Shown in pieces: positions 20,016 to 53,271 of a DNA stretch of 64,000 nt (position 1 is its first letter; every line of letters starts with the position of its first letter). This stretch comes from Nemertoderma westbladi (taxonomy: Eukaryota; Animalia; Xenacoelomorpha), in NCBI GenBank assembly GCA_032718475.1, contig JAUCBJ010006851.1, positions 15,985 through 79,984 on the forward strand, given 5' to 3'. The notes under the pieces were generated by a model. The model was not told where the DNA came from. It did no database searches and saw nothing but the letters and a program-made list of their open reading frames with translations. The translations under genes were made by a program, and so were the position numbers.

Positions 20016-20096
20016 TTGTAAACTCGTCCTTAGTTCTTCTAGTGTTAATGGACCAACAAATCTAAGAGGTTTCTCGGTCGTCTTGGGATTATTTTG

Positions 20097-22308: not shown

Positions 22309-22443
22309 TTCCTGTTCTATGAATGTATCTTGTAGTCGACATACTGATTCATGAGTGAGTATTTCAATGTAATTTATACTCTCAGATTCTCTCTCTTTTA
22401 ATGTTCTCTCTGATGGTCCCGAACAATACCATCCAAGAGGTGT

Positions 22444-29216: not shown

Positions 29217-29938
29217 GTGCCATGGCTCACGTAACTCACCACGCACATTACCCGTCGATGGTCATGGGACATTCTCTGCCCCCCCCCCTCTCGCCCTCCG
29301 TCGGGTGCCACGGTTCACTCAACTCACCGCGTACATTACCCGTCGGCACTCGTGGGACATTCTCTGCCTCCCCCCCCCCCCCATTCACCATTAATCGCTT
29401 GTGGTGGGGTGCCCGCAGCCCCCCCCCCCCATCCGTCACCTCTTACTTCGCCCCCCACGCTCCCCTCTAGTCGACGCGTTATTTCTACCCTCATTGGGTT
29501 TATTCACCCCCGCTACTCTCTGCTGAACTGCGTAGCCTTGCAGGCTCTCATTGGGCAGATCGCTTGTTATTGGGATCGGAAATAAATGAATACCAGCTGC
29601 ATCAGTTTATTAATGGTCGACATACAGAACAGCATATCAAACAATAATATGAACCAACAGACCAACGAACACACCCACCACCTTACAGCACATCAGTACA
29701 GCAGTACAGTAGGTACCGGTAATGGTTACTGTACCTACAGACCTAGAAGATAGGAAAGACTGAATACCGGAATACCAGAAGAGGACCGGTAGGTAAAAGA
29801 CCAGTAGGTTTGATCTAACCACCACCAAGCCAGGGTCTACTAGAGCCCTAACAATACATAATCTAACATCTCCCCCAAGAACAATGTAGGAGACATTTGT
29901 ACTGAAAAAAAAAATCCAACCACCACCAATAGGTCAGT

Positions 29939-32900: not shown

Positions 32901-33190
32901 TCACAAATGCAGATGAGCTCATCAGTTGAATATTCGCCATAGGAAATTGTGGTGTGGAGGAGACCAATGCATGAAAGAAGACTACCATTAGCAGCAGAAA
33001 GATCTTCATGGTCTAGTGGAAGTAAATTTTCTTTGTCAATAGAAAGGGCCTGAAGAAAATCTAAGCCGGCAACAGTGGCCTCAGCACCAGTATCTGGAGT
33101 TGCTTTAAGAGAACCGAATAAATGTCCTGTTGCGATATGACAGAAGTTCAGAAATACTTTCGGAGCTTGTCGATTATGGCTTCCAACCAA
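29939..33190 (-). pseudogene. Gypsy pol with one in-frame TGA (31397-31399)
   Basis: PDTGA protease, VVDD RT, QTDAS RNase H; NP*IQRLKEKL continues in frame into the integrase (HDAHQG...CPQC, RSDGG, SNGHAE). Confidence 0.92.
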
Positions 33191-34269
33191 ATTGAGGGTG
33201 ATGCGGCTAATGGGTTTTGTCTTGGAGATTTTGAAGATGAATTCGAATTATTTTGTTTAGACCGACAAACATTGGCAAAGTGGCCTTCCTTGCCACAATA
33301 AGAACAATCTTTGTTCCTTGCTGGACAGTCAGCGCGTTTATGGTCTGTTTTACCACAACCATAACAAACTATAGGGCCAGTAGTTGAAGAATTGTTTCTG
33401 GAATTGGATTTAGAAGAATTGTTGCGCCTGGAATTATAAGGCTTTTTGTTGTGAAAACGAGATTGTCGAGAAGCTTGGTTGATTGAAGGGTTTTTTAAAT
33501 CCTGAACTCCAGCTTGGGCTGATTCCTCAGACCTACAAAGATTTACAGCATCTTCAAGCGATGGAAATGGAGTCAATGCAAGAAGTTTAGATCTGGTGTC
33601 CTCGCAAGAAATACCAGACATAATTCGAGTAGTCAACCGCCGATCGAAACAATGACGACATAGATCAGCATCTCGAGCAAGATCTTTAATAGCAACCAGG
33701 TAGCTATCAAAATTTTCACTTTGACATTGTTTCCTATTATCAAAATGAACACAATCAAGGGCTATATTCCGTTTACCACGAAAATAACTTTGAATACAAT
33801 CTATTAACACCTGAACTGTTAAAGGATTATCATGTGTGTCAGGAGGAATGTCAATAACTTGTTCCAGTGTAGAGCGCATACCTATAGAAAGGTAACTCCT
33901 GAAAATACAGATTTGCCTATCCCTAGCCATTCTATCCATCTGAAATGCAGAATAATAATCCGCCCAAACCGACTTCCAAGTTTCAAATTTTGCTAAACTG
34001 AAATCCGGTTCTAAAGCAATTGGTGCTTTAATTTGAAGATTACGAGGGGTTGAGTCAGCCTGATGAACTACAGGTTGATGTGGTTGACCAAGTAATTGTT
34101 GAAATTGATGGGCATTTTGGGCTTGGGATTGTGCTAAGGAATCAGCCAAATCGCGTTGTGATTTAACTAAAGCATGTAGAAGAGCTGAGGTGGGATCAGG
34201 ATTACCACGACCAGCCAACTGTTCTCTTAAAACCTCCAGTTCAGTTTCGAGTTCAGCTTTAGTAGGCAT
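33148..34269 (-). CDS. Gypsy gag
   Basis: 373 aa; two CCHC knuckles CYGCGKTDHKRADC and CSYCGKEGHFANVC. Confidence 0.88.
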   Translation of the reverse strand: MPTKAELETELEVLREQLAGRGNPDPTSALLHALVKSQRDLADSLAQSQAQNAHQFQQLLGQPHQPVVHQADSTPRNLQIKAPIALEPDFSLAKFETWKSVWADYYSAFQMDRMARDRQICIFRSYLSIGMRSTLEQVIDIPPDTHDNPLTVQVLIDCIQSYFRGKRNIALDCVHFDNRKQCQSENFDSYLVAIKDLARDADLCRHCFDRRLTTRIMSGISCEDTRSKLLALTPFPSLEDAVNLCRSEESAQAGVQDLKNPSINQASRQSRFHNKKPYNSRRNNSSKSNSRNNSSTTGPIVCYGCGKTDHKRADCPARNKDCSYCGKEGHFANVCRSKQNNSNSSSKSPRQNPLAASPSIWLEAIIDKLRKYF

Positions 34270-34800
34270 ATCTGACTGTTGAATATTAGAGAAATTTCAG
34301 GAAATTAAATATCCGAAAAAATTTGAAAAATCCAAAAAGAAAAAATTTTGCAAAAATGTGCAAAACTTTTGCACGCAAATCAGCCCAAATCTGTAGTTAT
34401 CGAATACTGACAGACTGGAATACCGCCTGACTGCTGAATGTGAATTGAATAGGTACCGGTAGTTATAATTAGGCTAGCGGGCGTCGCTGCCTACCCCTCA
34501 CGGCCCCCGGACAGCGCAAGGTCCTCAGCGCCGATGTAGGCTACCGTCGTCGCTGTGTTTTGCGCCAACGTAGTAGCTACACAACGACAACGATAACCAG
34601 CGCGAGTCACTCCACTGTCCGTCCCAAGGGCTTAGTTTAGAAGAGTACTGGAGTAGGTACACCACCAGAAGTATAGGTAGGTAGCTAGGCCTAGATCAGA
34701 ATCAGTAGAGGCGACCGGTAGAATAATATTGAATTATCTAACCTGCTGAATGCACTGGAATGTCCACCATTTGAATAGGGTTGTAGGAACATCAAGTACA

Positions 34801-34811
34801 TCACTGCGCCA
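34801..34811 (-). promoter_or_regulatory. Gypsy canonical tRNA primer-binding site TGGCGCAGTGA (tRNA-Ser-like)
   Basis: Begins with TGG immediately after the 5' LTR; tRNA identity inferred from typical tRNA-Ser 3' ends. Confidence 0.75.
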
Positions 34812-35305
34812 TATTGGGATCGGAAATAAATGAATACCAGCTGCATCAGTTTATTAATGGTCGACATACATAACAGCATATCAAACAATAATATGAACCA
34901 ACAGACCAACGAACACACCCACCACCTTACAGCACATCAGTACAGCAGTACAGTAGGTACCGGTAACGGTTACTGTACCTACAGACCTAGAAGATAGGAA
35001 AGACTGAATACCGGAATACCAGAAGAGGACCGGTAGGTAAAACACCAGTAGGTTGGATCTAACCACCACCAAGCCAGGGTCTACTAGAGCCCTAACAATA
35101 CATAATCTAACACTTGTTCTCCCTACTTTTGTATTAATTGCACCGTTAATAGTTTCGCCCTGCTGGTCCACTGCGTTATTAATTGCATTATTTTGATTAT
35201 TTTCTCCACTGTTATTTATTATATTATTATTTGAATTGTTATTATTTAAATTATTTGAATTATTTTGCCCTACATTATTTATATTATTATTTAAATTATT
35301 TTGTA

Positions 35306-37198
35306 TATTCGAAGAGACGGTAACAATACCTGCAATATCCTACTGTAAAGTTTGTGAATCAAATCATAAATCCGACCTTCTCACCAAAACAGTAAACTCT
35401 AAGTAAGCGAATATATTGCAGTATCGATCTCTTATAACCGGTGAGGCAGAAAACAGTCTACGAGCAGACAAACTTCGATAAAACAAAATCCCGCGCAGCG
35501 AATCCTAGGCTCGTAGGAATCCAGGGCTCGTATACTTTGCCGCGGTGTGATTTATATGGTTGGGCGAAAGGGACGCTAGCTAGGTACAGAGGCAGAGATT
35601 TGGAGATGTCTAACTAGCGGGCAAAGCACAGTACGGACAAAAGTTAATTTTATATATTTTGAGGTGTAAATAATTTCTAACGCGCGTGTTAATTCTGAAC
35701 GGTCAAAGCAGTTTTGCTCCTTCACATATATAATTACTGGGTACGGTGTGCATTTTACGAATATTCTAATTTTGTAACTTGTAGGTCCAATACTCACGAA
35801 TGATAAGGTTCCTTCCCCTCTTGCGTATTTCCAGGACTCAAATTCAGGCATAAGGTTAATGCTACGCCCAGAATTCGGCAATTTTAATTTACCAGGCCCC
35901 TAATACTAAGAAGAAATGTGTTAGTTTACTACAGTAGGCGTACGGTTACAAATAGCTATCCTGGCGTCCTATCTAGAATTTTAGTCACCTAGGTAGGCTG
36001 GGTAACTTCCTATCAAGACGTTGGCGGGGACACGGTAGATGTTAGTATATCCCTAATAGCCTCAATTTATTTTCGCCTAGCCGTAAACTGCCCTACCGCC
36101 TGAACGGTACAATCCCAATTCAGGTGAAACACAGCAACCCTCCTAGCCTACAAGTTCTAATGCAATGGACACCGTTGCACTACAAATAGTCACAGACGCA
36201 CCTGTACTTAGCAAGAGTTAGGCGTACAGTTTGCTGCACCCTACCAATGTGTATGCTTTGTACCGGTGTGCCCACGTCCTATCTGCGTACTAGTATCTCT
36301 GCCTGCTCTCTCCCCCCCGTAGGAATGTGAAGGTCTACTGTGGTTTTTTCCTGAATTAAGACAGTACAGTCCCTAAGATGTAATTTTAGGCTCACAGCGT
36401 GTCACTACTTCTACCTTTTGATCTTTGGTCTTACGCTTAGGTAGCAAGGCGTCGAACGCTGTCTAACCTTTCAGGCGATGGGCGAATAACTGAGATGATA
36501 TTGCGGGTTGTCTCTTGTCTACATTCCCGTGATGTTCCCGTTCATTGCTACGGCCCGATCTCTAGCCGGCCATCCTGTTCTTAAAGGTGTTCACCGTAGT
36601 GAATCATGATGAAAAGAAAAGGCAGGTAGCGGTATTTCTGAATTTATTGCAGATAATAATACAAAATGTAATCTGAAAACTAATGACAGAATAAACAAAT
36701 ATCAGATAACTCAGAATAATTGTGTAAGTGAAGAGTGAAAATTAGATAACTAATGAACAAATCGCACCTTTATATACTAAATTTGTGCTGCAATCAATCG
36801 AGAAAATTCTCGATTGTTCTATAGGTTCTAACAGGTTTTTAAAGATAGCTATTGGTCCAGCTAATATATAACTTGTACGACATTGGTTACAATCAAATAA
36901 CTACAGTCTCATTGGTTAATCTAGGTACAAACAAATGCAATTTAATTTGTAGCGGTTAATTTAAATGTGTTGAAATTCTGTACAAAAAATAATTCGCACT
37001 TACTAGGATTCGAACTCAATACCTACTACACATATAATTTCCAACGCTCTACCAACTGAGCTACTGAACCACTTGAATAATAGGCGTACAAATAGAAATA
37101 GCAATACAAATGAGGACTCAATGTAATCTTTTACAAAGTTAATTCGAATAAAAATAAAATTTTGAAAATCCACGGCATTTAGGGAATATAATTCTATA
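35306..37198 (-). repeat. BEL-C 3' LTR (1893 bp)
   Basis: Direct repeat of 50027-51932. Confidence 0.97.
36984..37070 (-). ncRNA. tRNA-like Pol III unit in the BEL-C 3' LTR
   Basis: A box/D-arm TAGCTCAGTTGGTAGAGC, B box GTTCGAATCC, T6 terminator; acceptor and anticodon stems do not pair. Confidence 0.6.
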
Positions 37199-37747
37199 CC
37201 GCTCCATGAAAACAGGATATTATCGTGCATAAAATATACGGTTTTCACCAATAATCAATCAAACTATAGAATACTTAGGGCGTACTTACATATTTACAAT
37301 TAAATTTCAAACAATACTTCCTTTCTACATAATGATTCGATACAAATAATTACAAATTCAAACTTTACGTATTTAAGTCTTTACTAAGTAAGTACAATAT
37401 AAATCTAAATTAAATTCACCAATATAAATCTATTGCATCTCAATATTGCATAAATTCAAATAATTACAAATACTTTCGTGCCTAAATGTAGATTGCATAA
37501 GTTCGGACTAATTACAAATATGAGTCTTTCTAAGCACAAAACTTTCTAACTATAAAACTTTCTAAATACAAAATATAACACTTTACAAATGAAACTATAA
37601 GAAAGGCCCACGAGTCTTCCATCTACTCTTACTTTCTATTTCACTGTAAATACAAATACTGCTTATAAGATATAAATTGCATAATATTCGGAACAATATA
37701 AATTGCATAAGTTCAGAATAATCTCAAATATAAAATATAAATCTTGC

Positions 37748-37870
37748 AAAATATAAGTTCTTACTAAATATAAATCTTACTAAATATAAATCTTACTAAA
37801 TATAAATCTTACTAAATATAAATCTTACTAAATATAAATCTTACTAAATATAAATCTTACTAAATATAAG
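37748..37870. repeat. 16-bp tandem repeat in BEL-C 3' UTR
   Basis: aaatataaatcttact, about 6 copies. Confidence 0.9.
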
Positions 37871-37978
37871 TTCTTCCAGAATACAAACTTACTAATTAAA
37901 TATAAAACATATAATTCAAATAAATCACAAATTCACAAGAAAGGCTCACGAGTCTTCCGTCCACCCTTGCCCTCCCTT

Positions 37979-39717
37979 TTATCGCTTTGTGGATCGAGCC
38001 CTGCCGCGTCCTCGAAAACTGCGCACAGGTGACTTTGCTCGCGATATGGGACTTGTGGGGCGAGTCACTGGTTTCGTTTGGACGTTGAGAGACGGTGCGA
38101 CTATTTCCTCGCAAATTCGTCTATTTGGCATCCCAAAACCTCGACCGATTCCTCGTGACCGATCAGTTGTCACTACAGTTGGTAGAACGTCTGGGAACGC
38201 GCGAGAAGCGGACGACGCAGACCCAAGAGCAGCTTGCGCCCCCTTCTGATCAGCTGGTGTATGTCCCGATCCTCCTATTGGTTCTCTAGGAAGCGATACC
38301 GTATCCCGAGTAATTCGAATAGTCGGCTCAACTCCCTTGCGTTCTTCTATATTAATAATTTTCTTTAATTGTTGGCCCACTTTCTGGACCCGTATGATCC
38401 TACCCTGTCCGTCCTCCCGAGGGTGACGTGCAGACGGCGCAACCGGAGTGGCTGGTATGTCGGTCGCCTCTAGTATCTCCTCTTCCTCGAATACGCTCGC
38501 TCGTATACGTTTATGGTAAAACGCGGCTCGGTACGCCCATGCGACGGTTAACCAAGCTCCTTTATTCCGTTTTTCAGTTCGGAAACGATCGAATTCACCA
38601 TACGTGATGCGATTAACGACTTTCTGAAAATTCCACGTGTTTTTGTTATCCGGGTGAATCTGTAGTAGATACTCGCACACTACTCGGAATCCACTGTCGT
38701 GGGGCAAAATATCGACTACCTCGATAAGTTCGTCATATTGGGGCATAGCGGAGATATATCCTTCCGACATCATCGTTTGGGGATTTACCGCCCAAAATCC
38801 AAGATGCGCTCTCATCGGAAACCGTCTTCTTTGTGCCGATACATGTTCGTCGGCTAAATCTTCCCACTCATCAAATAATTTCCTCACGAGTTTTACAGAT
38901 TCGTGTTCATAAGGTATGTCTCTTAGTTGGCATTCAGATGCTCGATGTCCCTTTATATTACAATAAGTACATTGAGCCATAAATCTCCAGCAAGTATAAA
39001 AGGTATGAGACCCTTGATCCCCACACCATCCACAGATTAGCTGAGTCGTAGTAATGTGCTTTCCACTGCACTTGGTCAAATGATGTCCAGCGACGCCACA
39101 TTTACCACACATCGTATTGGCAGGGTACCACACTCGTTCGTATATAAGATCTCCAATCGGTCGAGCGCTTCCTCCCACACTATAATCGTAATCATCTGGA
39201 TCTATGGGTTGGTAGGTTTCTGAGGGTTGTATACAAACTATAGCATCTGTTGCTTCAAGTTGTCGAATCTCCGTCTGAGATTTCTTCGGGAGGTTCCTTT
39301 CTATCTCAAGAAGTTCCTCTAAAGGATCGTCAGTGATCGTAGAAGTTACTTCGAAATCATCACCAAGGTGACCGATAGGCGCGCGCGTCTGCCGTGATTC
39401 ATCCGTAATCTCCACGATACGTTCTCCTTCATAGGGTAACAATGTAAACATAGATGGTCTTTCGATAAGAGATCCCGCACAGCGAAGATACACGTCTCGA
39501 AATATACTAAATCCTGCTCGAGTAAAGGCATTACACTGAGCGTCGGAGTTGTAGAAGGGTTGTCATATTTAGTCTTTGCGAGTTTCGCTGTACTTTCTGA
39601 TAATTCCTTTATACCAAATATGGTGTAGTCCTTAGCTCCAAATCGTTCGAATGGCGCTGCTGCTTCCTCTTGGATATCATATCCCCATCTCGGCTCTCCA
39701 TGTATCCCCTTCTCCAT
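37979..39717 (-). CDS. BEL-C accessory ORF(s): 123-aa ORF overlapping a >500-aa CCHC zinc-knuckle, RG-rich protein
   Basis: CGKCGVAGHHLTKC, CGWCGDQGSHTFYTC, CTYCNIKGHRASEC; tail RSRGIGRGFG...RSFRGRGRARSTKR; lies between pol and the 3' LTR; long frame open from about 39562. Confidence 0.75.
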
Positions 39718-40380
39718 AATTAGAGGTGTAGTTACATAATCATTACTACTAGAGGGAATACAACAGAGTTTGTATTTAGTTGTGAGGAGACGTGAGAGTT
39801 TCGTCTGCCCTTTGGGCTCGACAACGCTCTAACCTCCTACCCATAGCCTAGGATCTAGGGTTTCTTTAATGACACGCTGCTTCTTATCTAAAATTTTTTG
39901 CCGAAATAAAAACGAATTTGGGCTAAACTGGCTGTGAGTCTAAAATACTCACTTTTTGATCCCAAACTATTATCAGAAAATAAGCAGTCAAGAATTAGTA
40001 ATAAATATAGGGGAGTCTATTTATTGACATAACTTATTGAAACAAAACCGTGTAAAATTTAATTAAAATTTTAAGAAAGGCTCGCAAGTCTTCCTCTCTT
40101 GTTTCTCTTAATTTTAAGTTCCACCCGACTGTACCCTGAAATCTATTCACTGGAGAAAATTTTTAAAAATTTTTCAAATCCAAATGGATTGTCTAAAATT
40201 TCGAAAATGTCTCAATATTGTGAGTTCCAAGTAGAATTCCATTTCTTATACCTACAAATCCCGCTCCTATGTGACACATAAGGGTACTACCCTCAATGTT
40301 CACATATAAAGACAATGGAATTCTACCGCTGTCCTTACTACGGTGTACAGGTACGTGGAAATCTATTTGTAAACTCCTAA

Positions 40381-43300
40381 TTATTTACTAGTATTAGGTG
40401 GAGATTTGTAGTCTCCAGACTCGTTACGAGTCTCTTCAAGAAGTACGAGACGTTGAGTCGGTCTGTCAACTGTACGACCGTCAATTGTCCGTACCGTCAC
40501 AGTTCTTGTCACTCCATCCATAGATGGATGTGTGTCTAAAATTACACCTGTTATCCAGAAGCGTCTTTTTAGATTCACTTCTGCTAACAGCACGTGATCT
40601 CCCGGCTTTAATGCGCGGGTGTTATTGTACCATGTTGTTCTGGCAGAAATAGAGGGCAAATAATGGTTTTGCCATATTTCCCAGAATTTGTTAGCCAGTA
40701 GTTGCGTGATTTTCCACGCTTTTCTACCGTAGCTATCGCTTTCTATTGGAATAGAAATAGGCGTCAATGTGGTCGGTGCCTGCATAAGCAGGTGTGCCGG
40801 TGTTAAAGCAAACTGAGATTGTTTGTCATCGGGTACTAATACTATTGGTCTAGTATTTAGTAGTATTGCCTCGATTTCAACAAACAGTGTTGTCAGTTGG
40901 TCGTCTGTCAATATGTGGTTTACTGGAATGACCTTTGCCATTGCCGTTTTGATAGATCTAATCAGTCTCTCCCAGACTCCGCCTCTCCATGGACTATCTG
41001 GAGGATTAAACTTCCAAACAATCTTGTGAGGTTGTAGTTCGTTTGAGATTTGATCATGATCTAATTTCTTAAAGGCTCTAGCAATCTCATTTCGAGCACC
41101 AACAAAGTTTGTCCCTTGGTCTGAGTACAAGCATTTCACTAGTCCACGTCTAGCGATAAATTGCCGCAATGCTAGTATAAACGCGTTGGTGGAAAGATCC
41201 ATCACACGTTCAATATGAACTGCCCTACTGGACATACATGTGAAAATCAGTCCCCAGCGTTTTACTAGTATACGTCCACGTTTCGTATGTATGGGACCAA
41301 AGCAATCAATTCCAGTCTCTGTAAAAGGTGGTCTGAATGCTTGAAGTCGTGCTTGTGGAAGTTCACTCATTTCTTGGGTACCTATTCTAGAATGTACCTT
41401 TTTACAAATAATACACGTACGTGTCACTGAACTTAACGCTTTACTGGGTCTAATTAATACAAATCTTGTACGTAAGTAGGAAAGACAGTGGTGTCTTCCA
41501 GCGTGTTTCAGATGTAAATGTGCGTCCAGTATCATTGCACGTTGTAGTTCGTGATGTTGCGGTATTATTATTGGGTATCTAAAGTTTGTGTTAAAGTCAA
41601 TGTTTTGAAGCCGAGATTTATGACAAATTAAGCCATTATAAATAATCGGACTCCAACTCAGTATTGGTGACGACTTGATTGGTTGACCTTGATTTATAGA
41701 TGTGAATTCGCGTGCGAAATATCGCAGTTGGTAATGGCAAATTAATTTAATCTCACACCTGTCAATCTCAGCCAATGTAAGTCGACGTGTAAAGTCGCGT
41801 TTGCCTTTAACGTATTGTACAAAACGTACAATCCACGCTAATTTTCGGCAAGCGTTTGTCCAAGAGTCTGTTAAGTTTACAATACGGTCGACGTAAGTAT
41901 TTGTGACGTCATCAGGTAAGTCAATGGAGATTTTGGAAGGTTTTGATTTACTAGAAGGGCCCACGGGTCCGCCGGTAGGTATTCCCTTGTTGACTGTTGA
42001 TCCGTCCGGGTCTACAAGTAATTTGTCCTTCTTCGTCTTCTTACCTTGATTGTCAGTACTTTGTAAGTCGATCGTTAATGGTGGTTTGAACTCTATGGGG
42101 TCACTGGGTTTCGGTAAACTTAATTTTCTGCCGACATTAATCCCAGGTTTCACCATAGGTTGCAAGTTTGGTATGTCTCTTGAGCGCAGAGTAACACCTG
42201 TATTTACATTAGCGTAGGTACTACCCACATCTGTAATACATGAGGTTTCACCGTGCTTGTGGTTGCTCAAGTGTGTCAAAATTGGTAGTTTGTCAATACA
42301 AGGCCGCTCCAATAGGGAAACTGCGGCTTCACTATTTGTCGGTATGTTACTAGTGTCTGGTAGAACATTGTGTGACATGTCTGGTAAAATGTTTCGCGGA
42401 ACATCCGGCGAAATATCTAGTGACGTGTCTGGCAAAACGTCTGGTTGACCGTCTAGTAACGTGTCTGGCGATACGTCTGGTAACGTATCTGGTTGTTTGT
42501 CAATAGAAGGCCGCTCCAATAGGGAAACTGCGGCTTTACTATTTGTCAATATGTTACTAGCGTCTGGTAGAACATTTTGTGACATGTCTGGTAAAATGTC
42601 TGGTTGGCTGTCTAGTAACGTGTCTGGTTGACCGTCTGGCGATATGTCTGGTGTAGAAAGGCTCGCAAGTCTTCCTCTCTTGACCTTTGAAGTTATATCC
42701 TTCCATTTCGCCTTCGGTTTCTTCTTGAGTTTAGCCGCCAACGTCTTTTTCTTTGCCTTCCCCTTTTTTGGTTTCTTGATTTCGGCGTCCTTAGGGATGG
42801 TGTTAGACTTGTTGTCGTATAACGGTGGCCAATCTTGTGTCGATTTCTGCAAGAATTGGGGTCCGTGTTGCCAAAATTCTTTGTTTTCCGGTTTACAGAA
42901 TTCCTCAGGCATCATTCCTCGCGATGCAATATCGGCTGGGTTTTGTGGTCCGGGACAATGTCGCCAATCTTCTTTTATTGAACGGTCTAGAATTTCTGCG
43001 CGACGGTTAGCTACGAATGTCTTGAATTCAAGTGTGTCGTTGTTTATGTAAAATAAAACCAACGTCGCGTCAGTCCAATAAAATATCTGTAAACTTGACT
43101 GTAGTTCTGTCTGTATAAGGTTCACGATGGTGGTTGACAGTGTTGCGGCTTGTAGCTCAGCTCGTGGTGTCGTCATATACTTAGTAGGCATTGTTTTTGC
43201 CTTAGAAGTAATGAGCGAAACATCGAATTCTTCTGAGTCTACTTGTCTGCGCAAGTACGCTGCCACACCAAAACCGTTGTCACTGGCGTCAGAAAAACAA

Positions 43301-46300
43301 TGTAATTCCAAGTTGTCAGGAAACGTTGTTTGTAATGGAAAGTAGACTCTGGGTATGGAATAATCCTCTAGCGAAGATAATTCTGCCTCCCAGGTCTTCC
43401 ATAAGTCCACTTGGTCTGATGAGATCGGCTCGTCCCATGTCAGTCCATCCTTCCAAATACTGCGCATATAAATGCGGGCTTGCAGTATTATTGGACTGAT
43501 GAATCCTAATGGATCGAACAATCGGCTCAATTTTGACAAGCATGATCTCTTTGTCAGTGTGTTTTCTTGACTGTCCAGTCTCACCTTTACTCGAAAGTTG
43601 TCCGTGTTTGGGTCCCAAAAGAGTCCCAACACCTTGGTCGTCGGTAGTGGTTCGAACTCTAGGTCTATGTCACCATCTCCACGCTCAGTCGTTCCGAATG
43701 AGTCTACTAATTCGGCACTGTTTGAGGCGAATTTGGTGAGGTTAAAACCTCCGCCCGCTAAGCAGTCCCGTAATTGATGTGCTACTGTTGTAGCACGTTC
43801 TACTGTGTCGCAACTCTGTAATCCGTCGTCGACGTAAAAGTCACGTTCCACAATCCTAATTATCTCTGGGTCATACATGTGTTTCTGATCCCTAGCGGCT
43901 TGTTTTAGGGCGTACATCGTACAGTTTGGGCTGTCCCTGGCACCGAAAACGCGAACTTGCATTTGGTAAGTCGCCGGTGGTAGACTTAAGTCTCCTTCCG
44001 GATACCAGAGGAACCTCAAACTGTCTCTGTCTTGCTCTAACGCTCTCACTTGGTGAAACATAGCTTCAACGTCACAAGTAAAGGCTACTTGACGCTGACG
44101 GAAGCGCATAATCACCCCCATAAGATAATTATTCATGTTTGGTCCATCCATCAACTCGCTATTGAGGGACATTCCCTCAAACAGAGCCGCACAGTCATTG
44201 ACTACACGTACTTTGTCTGGTTTGTCGAGGTGTCTCACATAGTGATGTGGCAGGTAGTATGTCTGGTTAGTCACTATCTCTGGGTTAGTCATTCGGATAG
44301 CGTATCCCTTAGTCAAATACGTCTCCATCTGAGTGTTGTACTGCAGATGGGCTTTCTCGTCCTTTAATAGACGTTGCCGTATTGAGTGTAGACGTCTTAA
44401 AGCTAGTGGGTAGTTATTTATAAGTTTAGGACTTTGGCTACGCCATAACATCCCCACCTCATAATGTCCGTCCTTCGTCTGGCGGATAGTATCTTCCATG
44501 ATCTTCAAAGATTGTTTCTCCTGTTCCGACATACATGGTTCGTAGCTACCAGGTTCAGCTGTATCTTGTTCTAACCACCTGATAGTCTTCTCCGTTAATT
44601 CTTTGTCCAATGCAGCTTGTTCCACTTGATGATTTCTCAACGCTTCATCATCGATATCGACGGGCATTGTTGAGGTTATTGGGGTAGGTAGACTCGCAAG
44701 CCTTCCGGCGTTATCATCTGTCGTCGATGGAATCTCTAGCTGACTCGTCTTCTCCCCAAGTTCTAAACTCACCTGGTGGATTAGCTGCTCCTTGTGACTT
44801 ATCATACTAGTTACACGTCTGTCATGTTTTGTATGTAAGGTAGTATGGTCCACGTCGTGTGAAAAGGAATGAATTGAATTTGTAGTTAATAAACTACATG
44901 TACTTTGTACATCGTCTTCCTCGTCACTTATGTCCAGTGTGCGCACAGGCGCTCGAGTATACCACCCTATCGGCGTTCTACAGGCGTATGCGTTTCCCGC
45001 TACGATTGCCGATGGTCTGGTTTTCCACACTTGATGTAGGTTGAATTGGTCTGTCCCGATCAGCATTGCTACCGATCTATAATTGACAGGACATTCAGGT
45101 ACACCAAGGTGTCTGAAATACTTACGGTCCTCCAAGGATTGTTCTGGGACAGGACCTAGTAGGTTACTAAAGTCTTTTGTGGCCGCAAAAGTCAAATCCT
45201 TGAAGGGTAACAAAGACCTCTCCTTTTCGCTGTGTTGCGATTTTGGAAGAAGAGTGTCTAAGTTTAACTTAACTCGTGTCACTGGTATTGCACGTTGTCC
45301 GTGCATACTACTCACGGTGTAACTGACGCGCTTACCTTGTCTGAGATCCGTCACTACATCAGCTATCTGCTCATCCACGTAGCTGTGAGATGAGGCTGAA
45401 TCCAGGATAGCGTAGATTCTCTTGCTCCCCTTTGTGCCAGTAATCTTCATCGGAATTACACTGAATCCCTTTAGTTGGTCAGTCGTCAGAAGCGCGATCG
45501 ATGGTTGTTCGTCTCCATCAGAATATACGTCGTCGTCTTCTGACTCTTCGTCCGACGATCCGGATTGTTCTGAGAAGCAATCCTTAATATGTGTCACAAA
45601 GGTCGGAGTCGTTTTCGATTCTCGATTTTTGTAGGCCGCATTACATCTCGCTGCTGCTTCCGGTTGTTCCCTGGCGAAGCGTTTTGTCGGTGTGTGGCTG
45701 TCTGTGTGGAGCAGACCGTCGTGGTTGCGTCCACAGGATGGACAAGTGTCGGTATTTGGGCAATCCTTGCGAACGTGTCCGTGTCGCGTACACCGCCAAC
45801 AAGAGTCCAATGGCCGTATCTGCAGCCGTCGTTCTTCCGAGTTTAACTCGCGAAACTGTCGACAACCTCTCAACTTGTGACCGATAAACCGCTTACCTAG
45901 ATGCTCGCAGTATTGGCAGCCGCTGAAGTCGGTACTGAGTTGCTGTCTCGTCTGTTTTGTCCCAATGGGCGCAGATACCCTACTACCGTCCGAGAATTGT
46001 CGTGATTCCGTCGGTGTGGCGTAAGTGGCCGTCTTGGTGGATGTTGTCTGGGGTTTTTGTCGGTTTGAGGATGGCAAGGTGATTCCTTCTGCCACGATGT
46101 GCTGGTCAGTGTAGTTGGATCGAGTTTCTACCACTGCCTCCCTGGATATCAAAAGGTACACATCCTCCAGTTTTAAGAATCCACCCCGCTCTTCCCGCTG
46201 GTATTCGATCTTTCTCCACTCCCGACGAAGTCGATGGTGGAGTCGTCCTATGATCTTTAATAGGACTGTAGGGGTATTCCCGTAGTCAAGTTGTCCAATG

Positions 46301-49209
46301 GATCTCAAAGTAGTGATAGCGTTCTTTATCTCGTCAGCCAGTTTTAATAAGTCGACGGGTTTAGTGATAGCCCCTCCCTTACAGAGTTCCTCTATCACTG
46401 ACCTGGCCATGCTGACTGTACCTCCGTATATCGAAGTTAAACGATCGTACGCTAGTTCGAAAGCGTCCGGTACACCAACGAAGGTCTCCGCCAAACGTTT
46501 AGGTTCTCCTGACAACGTTTGAAGCAGGTAATTAAACTTCTCCCGTGATGTAAAGGCGCACACGGCGATCTGAGATTCGATATAGTCTACGAAAGTGTGC
46601 CAGTGTTTTGAGCTACTGGAAAACTTCGGTGGTTGTTGTACCGGCAATCCTTGTCTGGCTGCGAATTTCGCTATCTCCTCGGCCACGTTCAAAGTTTCGC
46701 GTCCTTGGTTGGCAATCGAGTTGATGTTCTCTCGTCTTGGCGCTTTTCCTTGATACGAGGTGTTTCTCGAAGGTATTGGTCTTTGCGGATCCTTCGGGTG
46801 GCTATTGTGTTCAAATTCGGTGTTCCTCGAACTATCGGTTTCAACTTCCTCCAAGCGTTCCTCAATCTGGGCCAACTTATTGACAACTGGTCGCAGAATG
46901 TCGGCGAATTGTTGTGTACTGATCGCGTCTGTTGGTTGTAACGCCTTTTGTGTTGGTGTATTCTGTGGAGGATTGTCGATAAATGAATTATCCGAACGCT
47001 CACGTTTACATTTGTCGGCCGCTCCTGTTCTAAATACCTCGCATTCCGGGTAATCCGACTCGCTCGAAGTACTACTGTCACCTGGATACGGTGGTCGACG
47101 TGCTCGAGTCCGTTGCGCCGTTCGAATCCTAACATTCCGTTTTGGAACATCGTCTACTGGTTTCCGTTGTTCGGTAGGCTCGCAGGTCTTCCTCGAAGTC
47201 GTAGATTGCGATGTAAACTGATTAAACGGTCGCGTATCCACTGGTCTCCGTTGCTCGGTAGGCTCGCAGGTCTTCCTCGAAGTCGTAGATTGCGATGTAA
47301 ACTGATTAAACGGTCGCGTATCCACTGGTCTCCGTTGCTCGGTAGGCTCACAAGTCTTCCTCGAAGTCGTAGATTGCGATGTAAACTGATTAAACGGTCG
47401 CGTATCCACTGGTCTCCGTTGCTCGGTAGGCTCACAAGTCTTCCTCGAAGTCGTAGATTGCGATGTAAACTGAACCGGTGGTCGAGTGACAGCGTTTGAA
47501 TCTAAAGGCCTTGTAGGCCTAAACGTCATTGGGTAAGCGTAGTGTGTAACGGGTTTAGGTGTCGACGGTGGACTCACCTGTTTAGTCGTCAGTAATACAG
47601 GTTCGACTAATAAACTACTACGATCTGTAATCAGCGGGTTACTTACCTTGACTTTCGGAATAGGCGATGACGTTGCTCTTGGCGGTGTAAACTTGTCCGG
47701 AATAACAAACCTGTGTTCCGTCGCACCATGGATAGGAGAAATATTACTACTACCAGCAATCGAAACAGGTTCCTTTGTCGTAACCGGTGCAAACATAGGA
47801 GTTACTTTAGGAAATCTTTGACATAAGTCTTTAACTAATTGTCGTTCTCGTCCAGGTGCTCCTATCGAACCTTCCTTCATTCGTTCCTGAATTTGGCGGT
47901 GCCTTACCTCTATCTGGTCTAAATCATGTCCGTCTCGAGATCTCATCGATCGATCGCGGGCTTGTAGATCCAGATCTTCCTTGGCGTTGGCTAATTCTCT
48001 CGCCTTCTTCTCGAGTTCGAAACGAAGTTTAACTTCTTTCTCGCGTTGTTCCGTTTGTTGTTGTTGCGCCTCGAACTCTGCTTGTCGTATAGCTGACTGA
48101 GCCTTTATTTGCCGTGTTTTCATTTCGGTTCTCGCTTCTGAAGCTAGCCTTTGTCGCTCTAACTCGGCCGCAGCTGTTCGTTGCGCTAACTCGGCCGCTG
48201 CCGCTTGTTGTGCAATGTCCAACTCTAACCTTTCCACTTCGGCTGCTTCCAACTCAGCTTGTTCTTGCAGATGAGAAATTCTCGCAACATTTGCGACGCG
48301 TAGTTTCTCTTCCTCTACAGCTGCTTGTAACGTCAATAACTGAGTTTGTTCCTCGATTTCTCGTTGTTGTCTGTAGAGCTGCTGTTGTCGAGCAATTTCT
48401 GACGTAGCCATACTCACCTCGCCAATTTCGCTGCGAATACTCACCAGTGATTGATTTAGTGTTCCCGGTGCCAGTTCGATTTGTGCGAGCGAAGTTTCCC
48501 TCGTAGCCTCCGGCACGGTTTCCCAATCTCCGACGTCCTCGCCGCACATGCGTAAGTGATCTGTCAGGTGTTTCAATTGTCCATCTAGCCTATACAGTTC
48601 CTGTTCTTCCTCGGGTTGTAATAATTCGTCCGAAACTGACTCACCTAACAACTGGTCCGCTTGTTCCTGTTGTATCTGCCTAATCGTCGACTTAAACTGA
48701 ATCAGTTTCTCTCTAGCGATCATTAGTTTCTCGAGGATTCTAAGCTGAGTGTCCATATCCTGTCTCTGTCTAGCTAGATCTTGTAGACCAATTAGGTTAT
48801 CTACGGACTTATATACTTTACTCTGTACTCTCACCTGTAGAGTGTAGAACTTGAACCGAGACATCGGAGCGGTTAACTCGTCTAATATGCGTTGGCCTTC
48901 TCCAATACTCCTGGTAATATGCGCCATGTAACCGCCGACGCTTCTAACCACACTCTCCTGGCTTCCTACTGAACTTACCATGTGCGTTTCCCTATATCTA
49001 GGTTGCGGAACAGTTAGAAAGTCCTCGGTCCTGCCGTCGCCTCGTACTACGGCATCCGGTACTCCCGTTGGATGTACTGGTGACGCACACGGTGTAGGTT
49101 CGGTAGGCTCGCGAGTCTTCCCCTGTTGTTCTTCCGCTGCTGACTTATCCGCGTCACATGAGTCATAGTCGGTAGGTGTATTCTTCGTATAGTCTTGTTT
49201 GTCACTCAT
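40381..49209 (-). CDS. BEL-C Gag-Pol polyprotein (2942 aa)
   Basis: Gag knuckles (CQYCEH, CWRCTRHGH, CPSCGRNH), ILDSAS protease, FYVDD RT, LHCFSDAS RNase H, HHCC and GIDCFGP/YSDQG/VWERL integrase. Confidence 0.97.
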   Translation of the reverse strand: MSDKQDYTKNTPTDYDSCDADKSAAEEQQGKTREPTEPTPCASPVHPTGVPDAVVRGDGRTEDFLTVPQPRYRETHMVSSVGSQESVVRSVGGYMAHITRSIGEGQRILDELTAPMSRFKFYTLQVRVQSKVYKSVDNLIGLQDLARQRQDMDTQLRILEKLMIAREKLIQFKSTIRQIQQEQADQLLGESVSDELLQPEEEQELYRLDGQLKHLTDHLRMCGEDVGDWETVPEATRETSLAQIELAPGTLNQSLVSIRSEIGEVSMATSEIARQQQLYRQQREIEEQTQLLTLQAAVEEEKLRVANVARISHLQEQAELEAAEVERLELDIAQQAAAAELAQRTAAAELERQRLASEARTEMKTRQIKAQSAIRQAEFEAQQQQTEQREKEVKLRFELEKKARELANAKEDLDLQARDRSMRSRDGHDLDQIEVRHRQIQERMKEGSIGAPGRERQLVKDLCQRFPKVTPMFAPVTTKEPVSIAGSSNISPIHGATEHRFVIPDKFTPPRATSSPIPKVKVSNPLITDRSSLLVEPVLLTTKQVSPPSTPKPVTHYAYPMTFRPTRPLDSNAVTRPPVQFTSQSTTSRKTCEPTEQRRPVDTRPFNQFTSQSTTSRKTCEPTEQRRPVDTRPFNQFTSQSTTSRKTCEPTEQRRPVDTRPFNQFTSQSTTSRKTCEPTEQRKPVDDVPKRNVRIRTAQRTRARRPPYPGDSSTSSESDYPECEVFRTGAADKCKRERSDNSFIDNPPQNTPTQKALQPTDAISTQQFADILRPVVNKLAQIEERLEEVETDSSRNTEFEHNSHPKDPQRPIPSRNTSYQGKAPRRENINSIANQGRETLNVAEEIAKFAARQGLPVQQPPKFSSSSKHWHTFVDYIESQIAVCAFTSREKFNYLLQTLSGEPKRLAETFVGVPDAFELAYDRLTSIYGGTVSMARSVIEELCKGGAITKPVDLLKLADEIKNAITTLRSIGQLDYGNTPTVLLKIIGRLHHRLRREWRKIEYQREERGGFLKLEDVYLLISREAVVETRSNYTDQHIVAEGITLPSSNRQKPQTTSTKTATYATPTESRQFSDGSRVSAPIGTKQTRQQLSTDFSGCQYCEHLGKRFIGHKLRGCRQFRELNSEERRLQIRPLDSCWRCTRHGHVRKDCPNTDTCPSCGRNHDGLLHTDSHTPTKRFAREQPEAAARCNAAYKNRESKTTPTFVTHIKDCFSEQSGSSDEESEDDDVYSDGDEQPSIALLTTDQLKGFSVIPMKITGTKGSKRIYAILDSASSHSYVDEQIADVVTDLRQGKRVSYTVSSMHGQRAIPVTRVKLNLDTLLPKSQHSEKERSLLPFKDLTFAATKDFSNLLGPVPEQSLEDRKYFRHLGVPECPVNYRSVAMLIGTDQFNLHQVWKTRPSAIVAGNAYACRTPIGWYTRAPVRTLDISDEEDDVQSTCSLLTTNSIHSFSHDVDHTTLHTKHDRRVTSMISHKEQLIHQVSLELGEKTSQLEIPSTTDDNAGRLASLPTPITSTMPVDIDDEALRNHQVEQAALDKELTEKTIRWLEQDTAEPGSYEPCMSEQEKQSLKIMEDTIRQTKDGHYEVGMLWRSQSPKLINNYPLALRRLHSIRQRLLKDEKAHLQYNTQMETYLTKGYAIRMTNPEIVTNQTYYLPHHYVRHLDKPDKVRVVNDCAALFEGMSLNSELMDGPNMNNYLMGVIMRFRQRQVAFTCDVEAMFHQVRALEQDRDSLRFLWYPEGDLSLPPATYQMQVRVFGARDSPNCTMYALKQAARDQKHMYDPEIIRIVERDFYVDDGLQSCDTVERATTVAHQLRDCLAGGGFNLTKFASNSAELVDSFGTTERGDGDIDLEFEPLPTTKVLGLFWDPNTDNFRVKVRLDSQENTLTKRSCLSKLSRLFDPLGFISPIILQARIYMRSIWKDGLTWDEPISSDQVDLWKTWEAELSSLEDYSIPRVYFPLQTTFPDNLELHCFSDASDNGFGVAAYLRRQVDSEEFDVSLITSKAKTMPTKYMTTPRAELQAATLSTTIVNLIQTELQSSLQIFYWTDATLVLFYINNDTLEFKTFVANRRAEILDRSIKEDWRHCPGPQNPADIASRGMMPEEFCKPENKEFWQHGPQFLQKSTQDWPPLYDNKSNTIPKDAEIKKPKKGKAKKKTLAAKLKKKPKAKWKDITSKVKRGRLASLSTPDISPDGQPDTLLDSQPDILPDMSQNVLPDASNILTNSKAAVSLLERPSIDKQPDTLPDVSPDTLLDGQPDVLPDTSLDISPDVPRNILPDMSHNVLPDTSNIPTNSEAAVSLLERPCIDKLPILTHLSNHKHGETSCITDVGSTYANVNTGVTLRSRDIPNLQPMVKPGINVGRKLSLPKPSDPIEFKPPLTIDLQSTDNQGKKTKKDKLLVDPDGSTVNKGIPTGGPVGPSSKSKPSKISIDLPDDVTNTYVDRIVNLTDSWTNACRKLAWIVRFVQYVKGKRDFTRRLTLAEIDRCEIKLICHYQLRYFAREFTSINQGQPIKSSPILSWSPIIYNGLICHKSRLQNIDFNTNFRYPIIIPQHHELQRAMILDAHLHLKHAGRHHCLSYLRTRFVLIRPSKALSSVTRTCIICKKVHSRIGTQEMSELPQARLQAFRPPFTETGIDCFGPIHTKRGRILVKRWGLIFTCMSSRAVHIERVMDLSTNAFILALRQFIARRGLVKCLYSDQGTNFVGARNEIARAFKKLDHDQISNELQPHKIVWKFNPPDSPWRGGVWERLIRSIKTAMAKVIPVNHILTDDQLTTLFVEIEAILLNTRPIVLVPDDKQSQFALTPAHLLMQAPTTLTPISIPIESDSYGRKAWKITQLLANKFWEIWQNHYLPSISARTTWYNNTRALKPGDHVLLAEVNLKRRFWITGVILDTHPSMDGVTRTVTVRTIDGRTVDRPTQRLVLLEETRNESGDYKSPPNTSK
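47150..47475. repeat. 84-bp in-frame tandem repeat (x~4) in BEL-C gag
   Basis: QFTSQSTTSRKTCEPTEQRRPVDTRPFN repeated. Confidence 0.92.
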
Positions 49210-51499
49210 TTCGGTAGTTGTAAGTCAAGTAAAGTGAGTGTCAAAGTATCAAACTTACCGTTTTTTATCTAAACGGTACTAATTACAGTCATATAAAATT
49301 AGCCTACCGGCCGATTTTATAGCAGATGGATAAAATTAGCCTAGACGGCCAATTTTACAGCAAATAAATGTCACGGAATAAGTATATAATAAAATTAGCC
49401 TAGCGGCCAATTTTATAACAAATAAATTGGATAACGATATGCGTTATCAAAAGGTAAATTAAATACAATAATACGGACTAATTCAGCAATGAACAAAGAA
49501 ATCATACGGAATGCATAAATACTTGAGACAGTGGAACCCACAATAATTTTAACTAATACGGTAATGCCTAACTTATTTATGCAACTTTTCAAACTCACCC
49601 ACTCCAATTATTCTCCAGAAAAACAGATTCCCAGATACAAACCGAACGTGAACCTTTCCGTTTCCAGCGTTGCGGACGAAGCGCGATTTTCCCAACCAAA
49701 GTTGTTGAGTTATCTATCTCCCAAACTTGCTAAACACGGTCTTGCTCCCGTTACAGTCTAGAAATGAGTTCTGAATCCTGAAAAACAAAAGAGTTAGGTC
49801 AGTAGGTTTTACTTTACGAAATTTTGTACCGGTACAATATGGTATTTAAACCCTTTTTTAAACACCGGTATTCAATTCCAAAAATAATTTTACACGCGGT
49901 TCAAATCAAATTTTATTTCAAAATATTAGCACTTAGCTAATCAAATATAAATTTTTACCTCAAAATACAAAATTTTCAAATAACTTTAGTCCTACCGAAC
50001 CGTAGTTCAGTAAAACACATTCCTACTATTCGAAGAGACGGTAACAATACCTGCAATATCCTACTGTAAAGTTTGTGAATCAAATCATAAATCCGACCTT
50101 CTCACCAAAACAGTAAACTCTAAGTAAGCGAATATATTGCAGTATCGATCTCTTATAACCGGTGAGGCAGAAAACAGTCTACGAGCAGACAAACTTCGAT
50201 AAAACAAAATCCCGCGCAGCGAATCCTAAAATCAGGCTGACTCACTGACGGACTAAAGGGCTCGTATACTTTGCCGCGGTGTGATTTATATGGTTGGGCG
50301 AAAGGGACGCTAGCTAGGTACAGAGGCAGAGATTTGGAGATGTCTAACTAGCGGGCAAAGCACAGTACGGACAAAAGTTAATTTTATATATTTTGAGGTG
50401 TAAATAATTTCTAACGCGCGTGTTAATTCTGAACGGTCAAAGCAGTTTTGCTCCTTCACATATATAATTACTGGGTACGGTGTGCATTTTACGAATATTC
50501 TAATTTTGTAACTTGTAGGTCCAATACTCACGAATGATAAGGTTCCTTCCCCTCTTGCGTATTTCCAGGACTCAAATTCAGGCATAAGGTTAATGCTACG
50601 CCCAGAATTCGGCAATTTTAATTTACCAGGCCCCTAATACTAAGAAGAAATGTGTTAGTTTACTACAGTAGGCGTACGGTTACAAATAGCTATCCTGGCG
50701 TCCTATCTAGAATTTTAGTCACCTAGGTAGGCTGGGTAACTTCCTATCAAGACGTTGGCGGGGACACGGTAGATGTTAGTATATCCCTAATAGCCTCAAT
50801 TTATTTTCGCCTAGCCGTAAACTGCCCTACCGCCTGAACGGTACAATCCCAATTCAGGTGAAACACAGCAACCCTCCTAGCCTACAAGTTCTAATGCAAT
50901 GGACACCGTTGCACTACAAATAGTCACAGACGCACCTGTACTTAGCAAGAGTTAGGCGTACAGTTTGCTGCACCCTACCAATGTGTATTCTTTGTACCGG
51001 TGTGCCCACGTCCTATCTGCGTACTAGTATCTCTGCCTGCTCTCTCCCCCCCGTAGGAATGTGAAGGTCTACTGTGGTTTTTTCCTGAATTAAGACAGTA
51101 CAGTCCCTAAGATGTAATTTTAGGCTCACAGCGTGTCACTACTTCTACCTTTTGATCTTTGGTCTTACGCTTAGGTAGCAAGGCGTCGAACGCTGTCTAA
51201 CCTTTCAGGCGATGGGCGAATAACTGAGATGATATTGCGGGTTGTCTCTTGTCTACATTCCCGTGATGTTCCCGTTCATTGCTACGGCCCGATCTCTAGC
51301 CGGCCATCCTGTTCTTAAAGGTGTTCACCGTAGTGAATCATGATGAAAAGAAAAGGCAGGTAGCGGTATTTCTGAATTTATTGCAGATAATAATACAAAA
51401 TGTAATCTGAAAACTAATGACAGAATAAACAAATATCAGATAACTCAGAATAATTGTGTAAGTGAAGAGTGAAAATTAGATAACTAATGAACAAATCGC

Positions 51500-51652
51500 A
51501 CCTTTATATACTAAATTTGTGCTGCAATCAATCGAGAAAATTCTCGATTGTTCTATAGGTTCTAACAGGTTTTTAAAGATAGCTATTGGTCCAGCTAATA
51601 TATAACTTGTACGACATTGGTTACAATCAAATAACTACAGTCTCATTGGTTA
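51500..51652 (-). promoter_or_regulatory. BEL-C LTR Pol II promoter (three CCAAT boxes plus TATATAAAGG)
   Basis: Plus-strand attggt at about 51586, 51616 and 51646 (30-bp spacing) upstream of cctttatata at 51501-51510. Confidence 0.6.
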
Positions 51653-51717
51653 ATCTAGGTACAAACAAATGCAATTTAATTTGTAGCGGTTAATTTAAAT
51701 GTGTTGAAATTCTGTAC

Positions 51718-51804
51718 AAAAAATAATTCGCACTTACTAGGATTCGAACTCAATACCTACTACACATATAATTTCCAACGCTCTACCAACTGAGCTACTG
51801 AACC
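51718..51804 (-). ncRNA. tRNA-like Pol III unit in the BEL-C 5' LTR
   Basis: Identical copy of 36984-37070. Confidence 0.6.
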
Positions 51805-53271
51805 ACTTGAATAATAGGCGTACAAATAGAAATAGCAATACAAATGAGGACTCAATGTAATCTTTTACAAAGTTAATTCGAATAAAAATAAAATTTTGAA
51901 AATCCACGGCATTTAGGGAATATAATTCTATATTGTACACCAACATTAAGATTATTACTACAGGGTAAAATATTATTTCCTGCAAGAAAGGTTTGATTAG
52001 TATTAGGGTTATCTATTACGGTACTATTAATATTATCTCCACTAAACGTATTATTATTATTACCCCCCCCTCCCCCCCGCCCGTACAGTCACACCAGTCT
52101 TGGGTCTGTCGTCCGGTACCTGTAAGTGGGGTATTAACAAAGGTTTCCGTCACCTCTGGTTCCTCATAAATACTACCCGAACCAGCCTCGCTCTCTGATA
52201 AACCCATTTTGCCAGTTCTAACCGGCGCTTTTGCTTCGCTTGATACTGCATTAACCCCTCAACTGGGTATGCATATCATCCCGCAAGTGTTTGCCCACCC
52301 TCTCTCTTTCTCTATCCTTCCTCATACTCTGGTCGGCCAATTCTGCCTCCCTCGCCTCCTGCTCTCTATGCTCGTTCACCTCCCTCTCAATTCTCTCAGC
52401 CTCCCACACCTTGCGCTTGTTTTCCACTCTCGCCTCCCACTCCTTGCGCTCTTTATGCTCGTTCATCTCTCTCTTAATTCTCTCAGCCTCCCGCACCTTG
52501 CGCTCGTTTCCACTCTCGCCTCCCGCTCCTCGTGCTCTTTACGCTCATTCATCTCTCTCTCCTCCTGCTCCCTACAGTTTCTCGCCACCCTCTCAGCCCT
52601 CTCTTTACACTCTCTCGCTAATTCTCTCTCCCTCTCTAGCAACGCGGTTCCCTCGTCCAGCTGCCTTTCTAGTTCCTTTTGATCCAGTGCAACAATGTCT
52701 AGTTGACACGCCAGATCTATCTCTAACACCCTTCTTGCTTTCACGGAGGATGTAGCGGACTTTTCGGTTGCGACGGACTCCCGTCGCCTGTCTGTCCTAC
52801 TAATTTTCCCCCGTTTGCTGGGGTTCCTACTAACCGACGACACCGAATCCTCGGGATTAACCTCGGATTTGCCATCGTGCGGGTCTGCACATCCCACTAA
52901 CTTAATCCCCCTCGCATCCACTAAGTAAGGCCCTATGTACACTACATCCACCTCCACCACCTCGGATCGCCACAATTCAAACAGTTCTGTAGCGACCCCC
53001 TCGCCCTCTCACTCGCCAGTTCTCCCTGTCCAAATCGGACTAAATAACGGAAATGTTTGTTGCACTCACCTAGCCTCTGATATAGTTTAGGATGGTCTAC
53101 CTTTCTCCCTTCCTTAGCCTCCTTTAGCATCCTCTTTGTGGCGTTGTAGGCCCAGTCGCAGGCGATCACTCGTCACGACATCTTCCTCGTTGACTCCACC
53201 TTCCCTCCTCGTCCGGCGCCGTACCGTTGGCCCCACCGTCGCCGTTCCGGTGGGCCGTTCGTCGTCGTCAT

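Follow-up and report, generated by a model that had tools for sequence, protein, structure and literature searches.

The window analysed here, a stretch of 64,000 nucleotides of contig JAUCBJ010006851.1 of Nemertoderma westbladi, contains a nest of minus-strand retrotransposons: the BEL/Pao elements BEL-A (truncated by the left edge), BEL-B, and BEL-C, a Gypsy element (D), a Copia element, and an A-like BEL element (A2). The terminal CA of long terminal repeats (LTRs) is regarded as near-invariant for retroviral-type integrases. In place of the canonical TG...CA ends, BEL-B and BEL-C have TA...TA ends, whereas BEL-A starts with TG (Table 1).

Table 1. Features of the nest, in coordinates of the window (PPT, polypurine tract; ORF, open reading frame; Pfam, domain matches).
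Feature	Position	Strand	Basis
BEL-A 5' LTR, TGT start at 10869; candidate ends 10469 (ACA) or 10450 (ATA)	10450..10869	-	depth, contigs
A2, A-like BEL element, apparent host of other insertions	about 15870-56360	-	apparent nesting
BEL-B, 12-kb element, TAT...ATA ends, in-frame stops in gag-pol	16127..28131	-	LTR pair, Pfam, ORFs
BEL-B LTRs, 602 bp, 97.3% identity	16127-16728 and 27530-28131	-	LTR pair
BEL-B LTR 12-base arm complementary to primer site	27952-27963, second copy 16549-16560	-	shuffles
BEL-B PPT end GGAGCGG, zero spacer to TAT	16729..16735	-	sequence
BEL-B primer site, adjoining LTR	27518..27529	-	complementarity
Gypsy D, TGT...ATA ends, ACAAG duplication	29568..35112	-	LTR pair, flanks, Pfam
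Target-site duplication TTGTA, left copy	35301..35305	+	flanks of BEL-C
BEL-C, 16.6-kb BEL/Pao element, TAT...ATA ends	35306..51932	-	LTR pair; Pfam DUF1759, Peptidase_A17, Integrase_H2C2, DUF5641
BEL-C 3' LTR, 1,893 bp, TATAGAAT...TTCGAATA	35306..37198	-	LTR pair
BEL-C PPT end GGAGCGG, zero spacer to TAT	37199..37205	-	sequence
BEL-C extra 3' reading frame, three CCHC-like knuckles	37979..39562	-	ORF
BEL-C gag-pol reading frame	40381..49209	-	ORF, Pfam
BEL-C integrase Trp codon; catalytic Glu codon	40987-40989; 40969-40971	-	translation
BEL-C primer site, adjoining LTR, no TGG	50016..50026	-	complementarity
BEL-C 5' LTR, 1,906 bp, TATAGAAT...TTCGAATA	50027..51932	-	LTR pair; X4 contigs
BEL-C LTR 11-base arm complementary to primer site	51053..51063, second copy 36319-36329	-	shuffles
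Target-site duplication TTGTA, right copy	51933..51937	+	flanks of BEL-C

Ends of the BEL elements and of their relatives

The two LTRs of BEL-C are 98.95% identical, with 10 substitutions between the copies, whose agreement stops with the very first base past either end. The perfect 5-bp duplication flanking the element has a chance probability of about 0.0025 at the local base composition. At least three contigs of run X4 exit the LTR exactly at 51932 into unlike sequence, among the 24 of 1,581 loose ends listed; none of these 24 lies at 50027. The LTR pair, the flanks, and the X4 contigs thus bear out the termini TATAGAAT...TTCGAATA and the TTGTA duplication that an earlier note on this DNA had read on the element strand. 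The BEL-B pair, differing by 14 substitutions, likewise agrees with the reading TATGA(C/T)GT...ACGTGATA given there, and the stretch GGAGCGG immediately precedes TAT in both elements, as had been noticed. On the other side of the element, the primer site adjoins ATA directly in both BEL-B and BEL-C, with no spacer. The evidence supports integration of both elements with TA-3' at both ends; their integrases must therefore accept TA.

For BEL-A, the ends TATAATC...GATTATA proposed earlier were not borne out. In three runs compared with positions 10390-10900, the family depth reached about 10869 (29,930 and 25,602 in the bin 10858-10875; 20 and 37 in the next bin), dropping beyond it by three orders of magnitude, and contigs of two studies (X2 record 16 and X4 record 23) ceased matching at the same position. 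The element strand at 10869 reads TGTAAAAGC, 19 bases upstream of TATAATC. Depth and contigs therefore place the LTR start at 10869, with TGT; the 3' LTR of BEL-A falls outside the window.

As relatives, 80 marine metagenome loci were examined. The counts of ends leave out pairs beginning at a contig edge, loci in which the pair begins within an LTR or at an overlap in the assembly (L004, L041, and L053), those in which it extends a few bases into the PPT, both then reading TGT (L016 and L072), and those with repeats that are not LTR-like (L039, L077, and L080). All 12 cleanly pair-fixed LTR starts are TGT, and the 13 fixed 3' ends comprise nine ACA, two ATA, and two ambiguous cases. A single TA end is found in two relatives, L001 and L078, and in Gypsy D of the window. 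The LTRs of L078 are identical, read TGT...ATA, and are flanked by a perfect GTGAC duplication; judged from its sequence, this locus is a putative intermediate state. Gypsy D serves as a control, having a single TA end in another superfamily, although an alternative boundary, TGT...AAT with a 6-bp duplication, fits too.

A PPT could be recognised by its pattern in 40 of 59 loci; the triplet after it is TGT (33), TAT (4), TAA (2), or TGC (1). The four TAT cases are TA followed by TGT, and the L014 pair shows the TA to lie outside the LTR. Junctions lacking a spacer are also seen where the ends are TG...CA (L021, L047, and L053). It was also observed that the spacer between PPT and LTR tends to equal that between LTR and primer site (3/3 in L001, 4/4 in L078, 3/3 in L067, and 2/2 in L033; 0/0 in L021, BEL-B, and BEL-C); such mirrored spacers suggest variable end trimming across the lineage.

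Primer sites and complementary arms

Neither BEL-B nor BEL-C has a TGG site after the LTR. Instead, the primer site of each is perfectly complementary to an arm in its own LTR, over 11 bases in BEL-C and 12 in BEL-B, which was equalled in none of 500 shuffles for either element; the numbers of such arms expected by chance are 0.0004 and 0.00006, respectively. Under a looser test allowing offsets and G-U pairs, 6 of 100 shuffles did as well for BEL-C. The predicted pairing probability between primer site and arm is mostly above 0.9 in both elements, and the arm is a putative primer. A tRNA-half primer common to A2, BEL-B, and BEL-C was considered and dropped, each site having matched its own LTR.

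For the relatives, only arm tests anchored at an LTR end were counted; an unanchored scan, with arms in 8 of 43 loci where the null predicts 5.8, did not rise above it. Of the 14 anchored loci, four have an uninterrupted arm of 10-12 bases. In eight others, an arm of 10-15 bases is interrupted by a GT-AG intron, and no more than 1 of 200 shuffles did as well. In these eight loci (L004, L021, L033, L035, L047, L067, L070, and L078), the intron of 67-186 bases lies inside the LTR, and pairing arises only after joining. No self-complementary arm was found in the other two anchored loci, L014 and L032, the latter having a tRNA-type site, and the BEL-A copy shows no significant contiguous or spliced arm for either candidate 3' end. 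Altogether, 12 of the 14 anchored relatives (11 families) have a primer site that is self-complementary, and nine of these 12 end in CA. The coupling of TA ends to the unusual priming that the earlier note had proposed is contradicted by these nine loci; it is likely that the minus strand is primed by the element's own RNA as a trait of the wider aquatic lineage, independent of the ends.

Self-priming of this kind resembles that of Tf1/Sushi, Tcn1, and TAR elements, which, in the available part of PMC6317226, lack a tRNA site and have a primer site complementary to their own LTR; the extent in BEL-C and BEL-B compares with the about 11 bases of Tf1-type elements. These elements belong to other superfamilies: with their BEL/Pao domains, BEL-B and BEL-C would work similarly to Tf1/Sushi without being members of that Ty3/Gypsy chromovirus group. 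In Tf1-type self-priming, the arm is located at the 5' end of the transcript and is freed by cleavage. The description of Belpaoviridae by the International Committee on Taxonomy of Viruses (ICTV) gives an 18-nt primer site complementary to tRNA-Arg or tRNA-Gly (PMC8742986), which BEL-B and BEL-C lack, as judged by the absence of TGG and the pairing with their own LTRs. Most of the marine relatives tested have no tRNA primer site, and in many the arm becomes complete only across a GT-AG intron, a larger departure from the ICTV description than the ends themselves.

Phylogeny, integrase residue, and neighbouring elements

BEL-A, BEL-B, and BEL-C all have the BEL/Pao domains in Pfam searches (Gag DUF1759, Pao peptidase/RNase H, integrase after reverse transcriptase (RT), and a DUF5641 tail), and the homologs listed carry the same Pfam families, with E-values to 4e-244. 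The ICTV description further gives LTRs of 0.2-1.2 kb, genomes of 4.2-10 kb, and a PPT of about 10 nt before the 3' LTR (PMC8742986). These size ranges are descriptive and do not accommodate BEL-C (LTR, 1.9 kb; total, 16.6 kb) or BEL-B (LTR, 0.6 kb; total, 12 kb), while the PPT corresponds to the GGAGCGG adjoining TAT.

The RT and integrase of the three elements are placed among BEL/Pao relatives, to which the trees were confined, with no non-BEL outgroup. The three form a single branch among 120 homologs, and likewise among 88 other rows; by RT, the clade lies among aquatic lineages, distant from pseudoscorpion rows. No named reference element of the groups Pao, BEL, Tas, Suzu, Sinbad/Sailor, Dan, or Flow was among the matches of any search. 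The closest matches, at 34-42% identity, are from cnidarians, echinoderms, amphioxus, molluscs, a tunicate, and fish, in keeping with the best protein matches of the window elements in general (marine invertebrates and fish). No RT homolog of BEL-B or BEL-C above 43% identity was present among the 320 compared, the two RTs themselves being only about 41% identical, and relatives sought among viral contigs were not obtained.

In the tree of RT plus integrase (21 rows), the branch of all three elements has support of 100/100, and BEL-A groups with BEL-B at 99/97; a forced grouping of BEL-B with BEL-C was rejected in the approximately unbiased test (p-AU, 0.011). The RT-alone tree concurs with the grouping of BEL-A and BEL-B. 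Since no tree joins BEL-B and BEL-C alone, TAT arose twice, or once with reversal in BEL-A. Of the clade whose integrase uses TA-3' ends, as posited in the earlier note, what stands is the acceptance of TA by BEL-B and BEL-C; a clade defined by TA...TA ends is contradicted by the TGT start of BEL-A and the rejected grouping. TG ends within the group, which had been named as evidence to the contrary, are present in BEL-A and absent from BEL-B and BEL-C.

The integrases of all three elements have a Trp six residues before the catalytic Glu. This position is occupied by His in 55 of 60 loci, none of which has Trp, and by His in 234 of 237 homologs; when the set was enlarged by a profile search with the three window integrases, His was found in 357 and Trp in 6 of 375. 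The Gypsy and Copia integrases of the window have Gln there. In Rous sarcoma virus (RSV) integrase, Gln151, six residues before Glu157 and equivalent to Gln215 of prototype foamy virus (PFV), stacks on the guanine facing the penultimate cytosine, according to the available part of PMC7955051. The model predicted for BEL-C integrase (pLDDT, 85) adopts an integrase fold, matching the PFV core with a Z-score of 15.6 (root-mean-squared deviation, 3.0, over 178 aligned residues). Sequence searches of the PDB with the BEL-C integrase and with the three-row alignment gave no matches, and a 72-row profile matched PFV integrase in the N-terminal part only.

Several further observations concern BEL-C. 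A long low-complexity insert separates RNase H from integrase in the polyprotein (about 42000-42900, minus strand), and the gag contains a fourfold repeat of 28 residues (47150-47470, minus strand). The extra 3' frame has no Pfam match, has a basic tail, and is not envelope-like. In both LTRs, a tRNA-like pair of A and B boxes precedes a run of T (51740-51797 and 37006-37063, minus strand), which neither ARAGORN nor Rfam calls and which may be a SINE head that was captured or a promoter for polymerase III; the search of the whole window with these two tools for tRNA and RNA families gave no matches.

BEL-B, BEL-C, and Gypsy D appear to have been inserted into A2, inside which the Copia LTR and an element that has terminal inverted repeats and TTAA flanks (15146-15864) apparently lie as well. 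The LTR elements of the window are all on the same strand, an arrangement that resembles and may represent a one-strand piRNA cluster. Gypsy D has a TGG primer site immediately past its LTR. Two inverted arrays of a satellite-like unit of 15/17 bases occupy positions 11572-13445. At 61024-64000 on the plus strand, a LINE-like piece with an ORF1-like frame followed by PHD-like and endonuclease-like stretches, as judged by eye, directly adjoins the Copia reading frame on its upstream side, and no LTR was observed at the 5' end of Copia.

Origin of the TAT...ATA ends and comparison with known systems

We consider it probable that the ends of BEL-B and BEL-C drifted from TGT...ACA by point change, the C next to last in the usual CA having become T at each end to give TAT...ATA. 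The copied DNA would be blunt, with TA-3'OH at both ends, and would be joined untrimmed, across a 5-bp stagger, by an integrase with tolerance for either C or T at the penultimate base. The integrase likely accepts both CA and TA, rather than having been switched from one to the other, as favoured by the TG start of BEL-A inside the clade of the three elements, the canonical relatives, and the one-sided TGT...ATA ends. More tentatively, the His-to-Trp change that the three elements share at the sixth residue ahead of the catalytic Glu may have relaxed the recognition of that penultimate base pair.

Several observations weigh against this reading. The clean 5-bp duplication claimed for these LTRs stands in BEL-C; the flanks of BEL-B, TTGAT and CCGAT, match at three of five positions and form no clean duplication. 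The 3' end of BEL-A may be AAACA at 10469, shared with A2 at 56315, or TTATA at 10450. The TA spacer between PPT and TGT in relatives permits another origin of TAT, and the integrase-alone tree groups BEL-A with BEL-C at 85, with BEL-B apart. The equivalence of the Trp to Gln151 is based on spacing from the Glu, the fold matches having given ranges and not residue pairs. The Trp is also unnecessary for a single TA end (L001 and L078 keep His, and Gypsy D is without Trp), insufficient (BEL-A has both Trp and a TG start), and recurrent, the six cases comprising two separate proteins and members of a pseudoscorpion lineage that is only distantly related. L001, L078, and BEL-A rule out Trp as a marker of TA ends; the comparison with other BEL integrases at residues predicted to contact the DNA end, which the earlier note had suggested, shows Trp in the three elements against mostly His, a change neither unique nor sufficient.

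It is less likely, though worth weighing, that 3' processing was lost and the spacers were retained, so that TA/TG...CA/TA became TAT...ATA and the buried TG and CA drifted. The junction PPT-TA-TGT is found in L014 and L072, where the TA is missing from the 5' LTR, and in L010, L025, and L067, which have no 5' LTR to fix the boundary; BEL-B itself can be read as TA-TGACGT...ACGTGA-TA. Spacer retention, however, needs extra changes, since BEL-C lacks both a TG at positions 3-4 and a CA ahead of the last TA, where BEL-B has GA. The one-sided L078, in which spacers are still present, indicates that the plain C-to-T change occurs, and point change explains the TG start of BEL-A without a special step.

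A clade-wide switch to TA-specific integration coupled to self-priming seems improbable. The three elements do form one clade with the Trp in common, BEL-B and BEL-C share GGAGCGG-TAT and primer arms, and a single gain with reversal in BEL-A is as short as two gains; such a switch is nevertheless opposed by the start of BEL-A and the rejected grouping of BEL-B with BEL-C, and the coupling by the CA-ended relatives with arms. Misplaced boundaries or mutation after insertion, to which the imperfect duplication of BEL-B and the earlier wrong boundary of BEL-A might point, are very improbable, because each element would have had to acquire one and the same change at four places, against 10 and 14 substitutions in the LTR pairs of BEL-C and BEL-B, respectively, and are refuted for BEL-C by its perfect duplication and the boundary shared by independent contigs.

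The aquatic BEL/Pao groups described include Sinbad/Sailor and Suzu. BEL-B and BEL-C resemble aquatic BEL/Pao elements in domain set and order, the G-rich PPT, and the 5-bp duplication; they differ from Sinbad, the ends of which are TGT...TCA in the available part of PMC554778. Bel/Pao elements are described with conserved end repeats in the portion of PMC3601003 at hand. Palindromic TA...TA termini like those of BEL-B and BEL-C occur in AtRE1 and other plant Copia elements, with 154 TATA copies in lotus and non-TGCA types mostly non-monophyletic (10.1101/137141 and PMC9804982, in their available parts); AtRE1-type elements differ in being Copia, in the plant kingdom, and in having short LTRs. 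In the annelid Lamellibrachia luymesi, supplementary table 2 of PMC8220671 has 13 rows of Gypsy elements with the TA...TA motif and 5-bp duplications, which are automatic calls from a superfamily other than BEL/Pao; both Bel-pao entries in the part available are TGCA. An animal lineage off TG...CA is known in the Zam/errantivirus LTRs of Drosophila (AGTTA...TAAYT, in the same portion of PMC3601003), which differ in belonging to the Gypsy superfamily and in having another end sequence, shared by most of the clade.

The literature searched, which did not extend to Repbase, GyDB, or subscription papers, mentions neither TA...TA ends nor self-priming for BEL/Pao, an absence that is thus weakly shown; the available parts of PMC3118150, PMC6238403, PMC13524379, PMC6934838, and PMC3395085 added nothing on BEL termini. 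TA...TA ends are thus probably unreported for BEL/Pao, and their significance is limited by the precedents in Copia and Gypsy. Likewise, the expectation that these elements are missed by LTR finders holds for strict TG..CA runs only, since the motif list of LTR_retriever contains TATA, as the available part of PMC8220671 states, and yielded the 13 annelid elements. Strict TG..CA annotation of animal repeats would miss or misbound the 16.6-kb BEL-C, which is abundant in the runs examined.

With two divergent, recently inserted TA-ended families, a TG-starting sister, and one-sided intermediates, the elements provide a small natural series, with one candidate residue, on what integrase recognises at the DNA end. 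A broader reading, which we put forward as doubtful, is that they represent a deep BEL/Pao lineage restricted to its host, in which the change of His to Trp at the residue that faces the penultimate base pair, or the loss of trimming, freed the ends from CA, with TG-starting sisters and a self-primed background. If so, the lineage would offer a natural series for the co-evolution of integrase and LTR ends.

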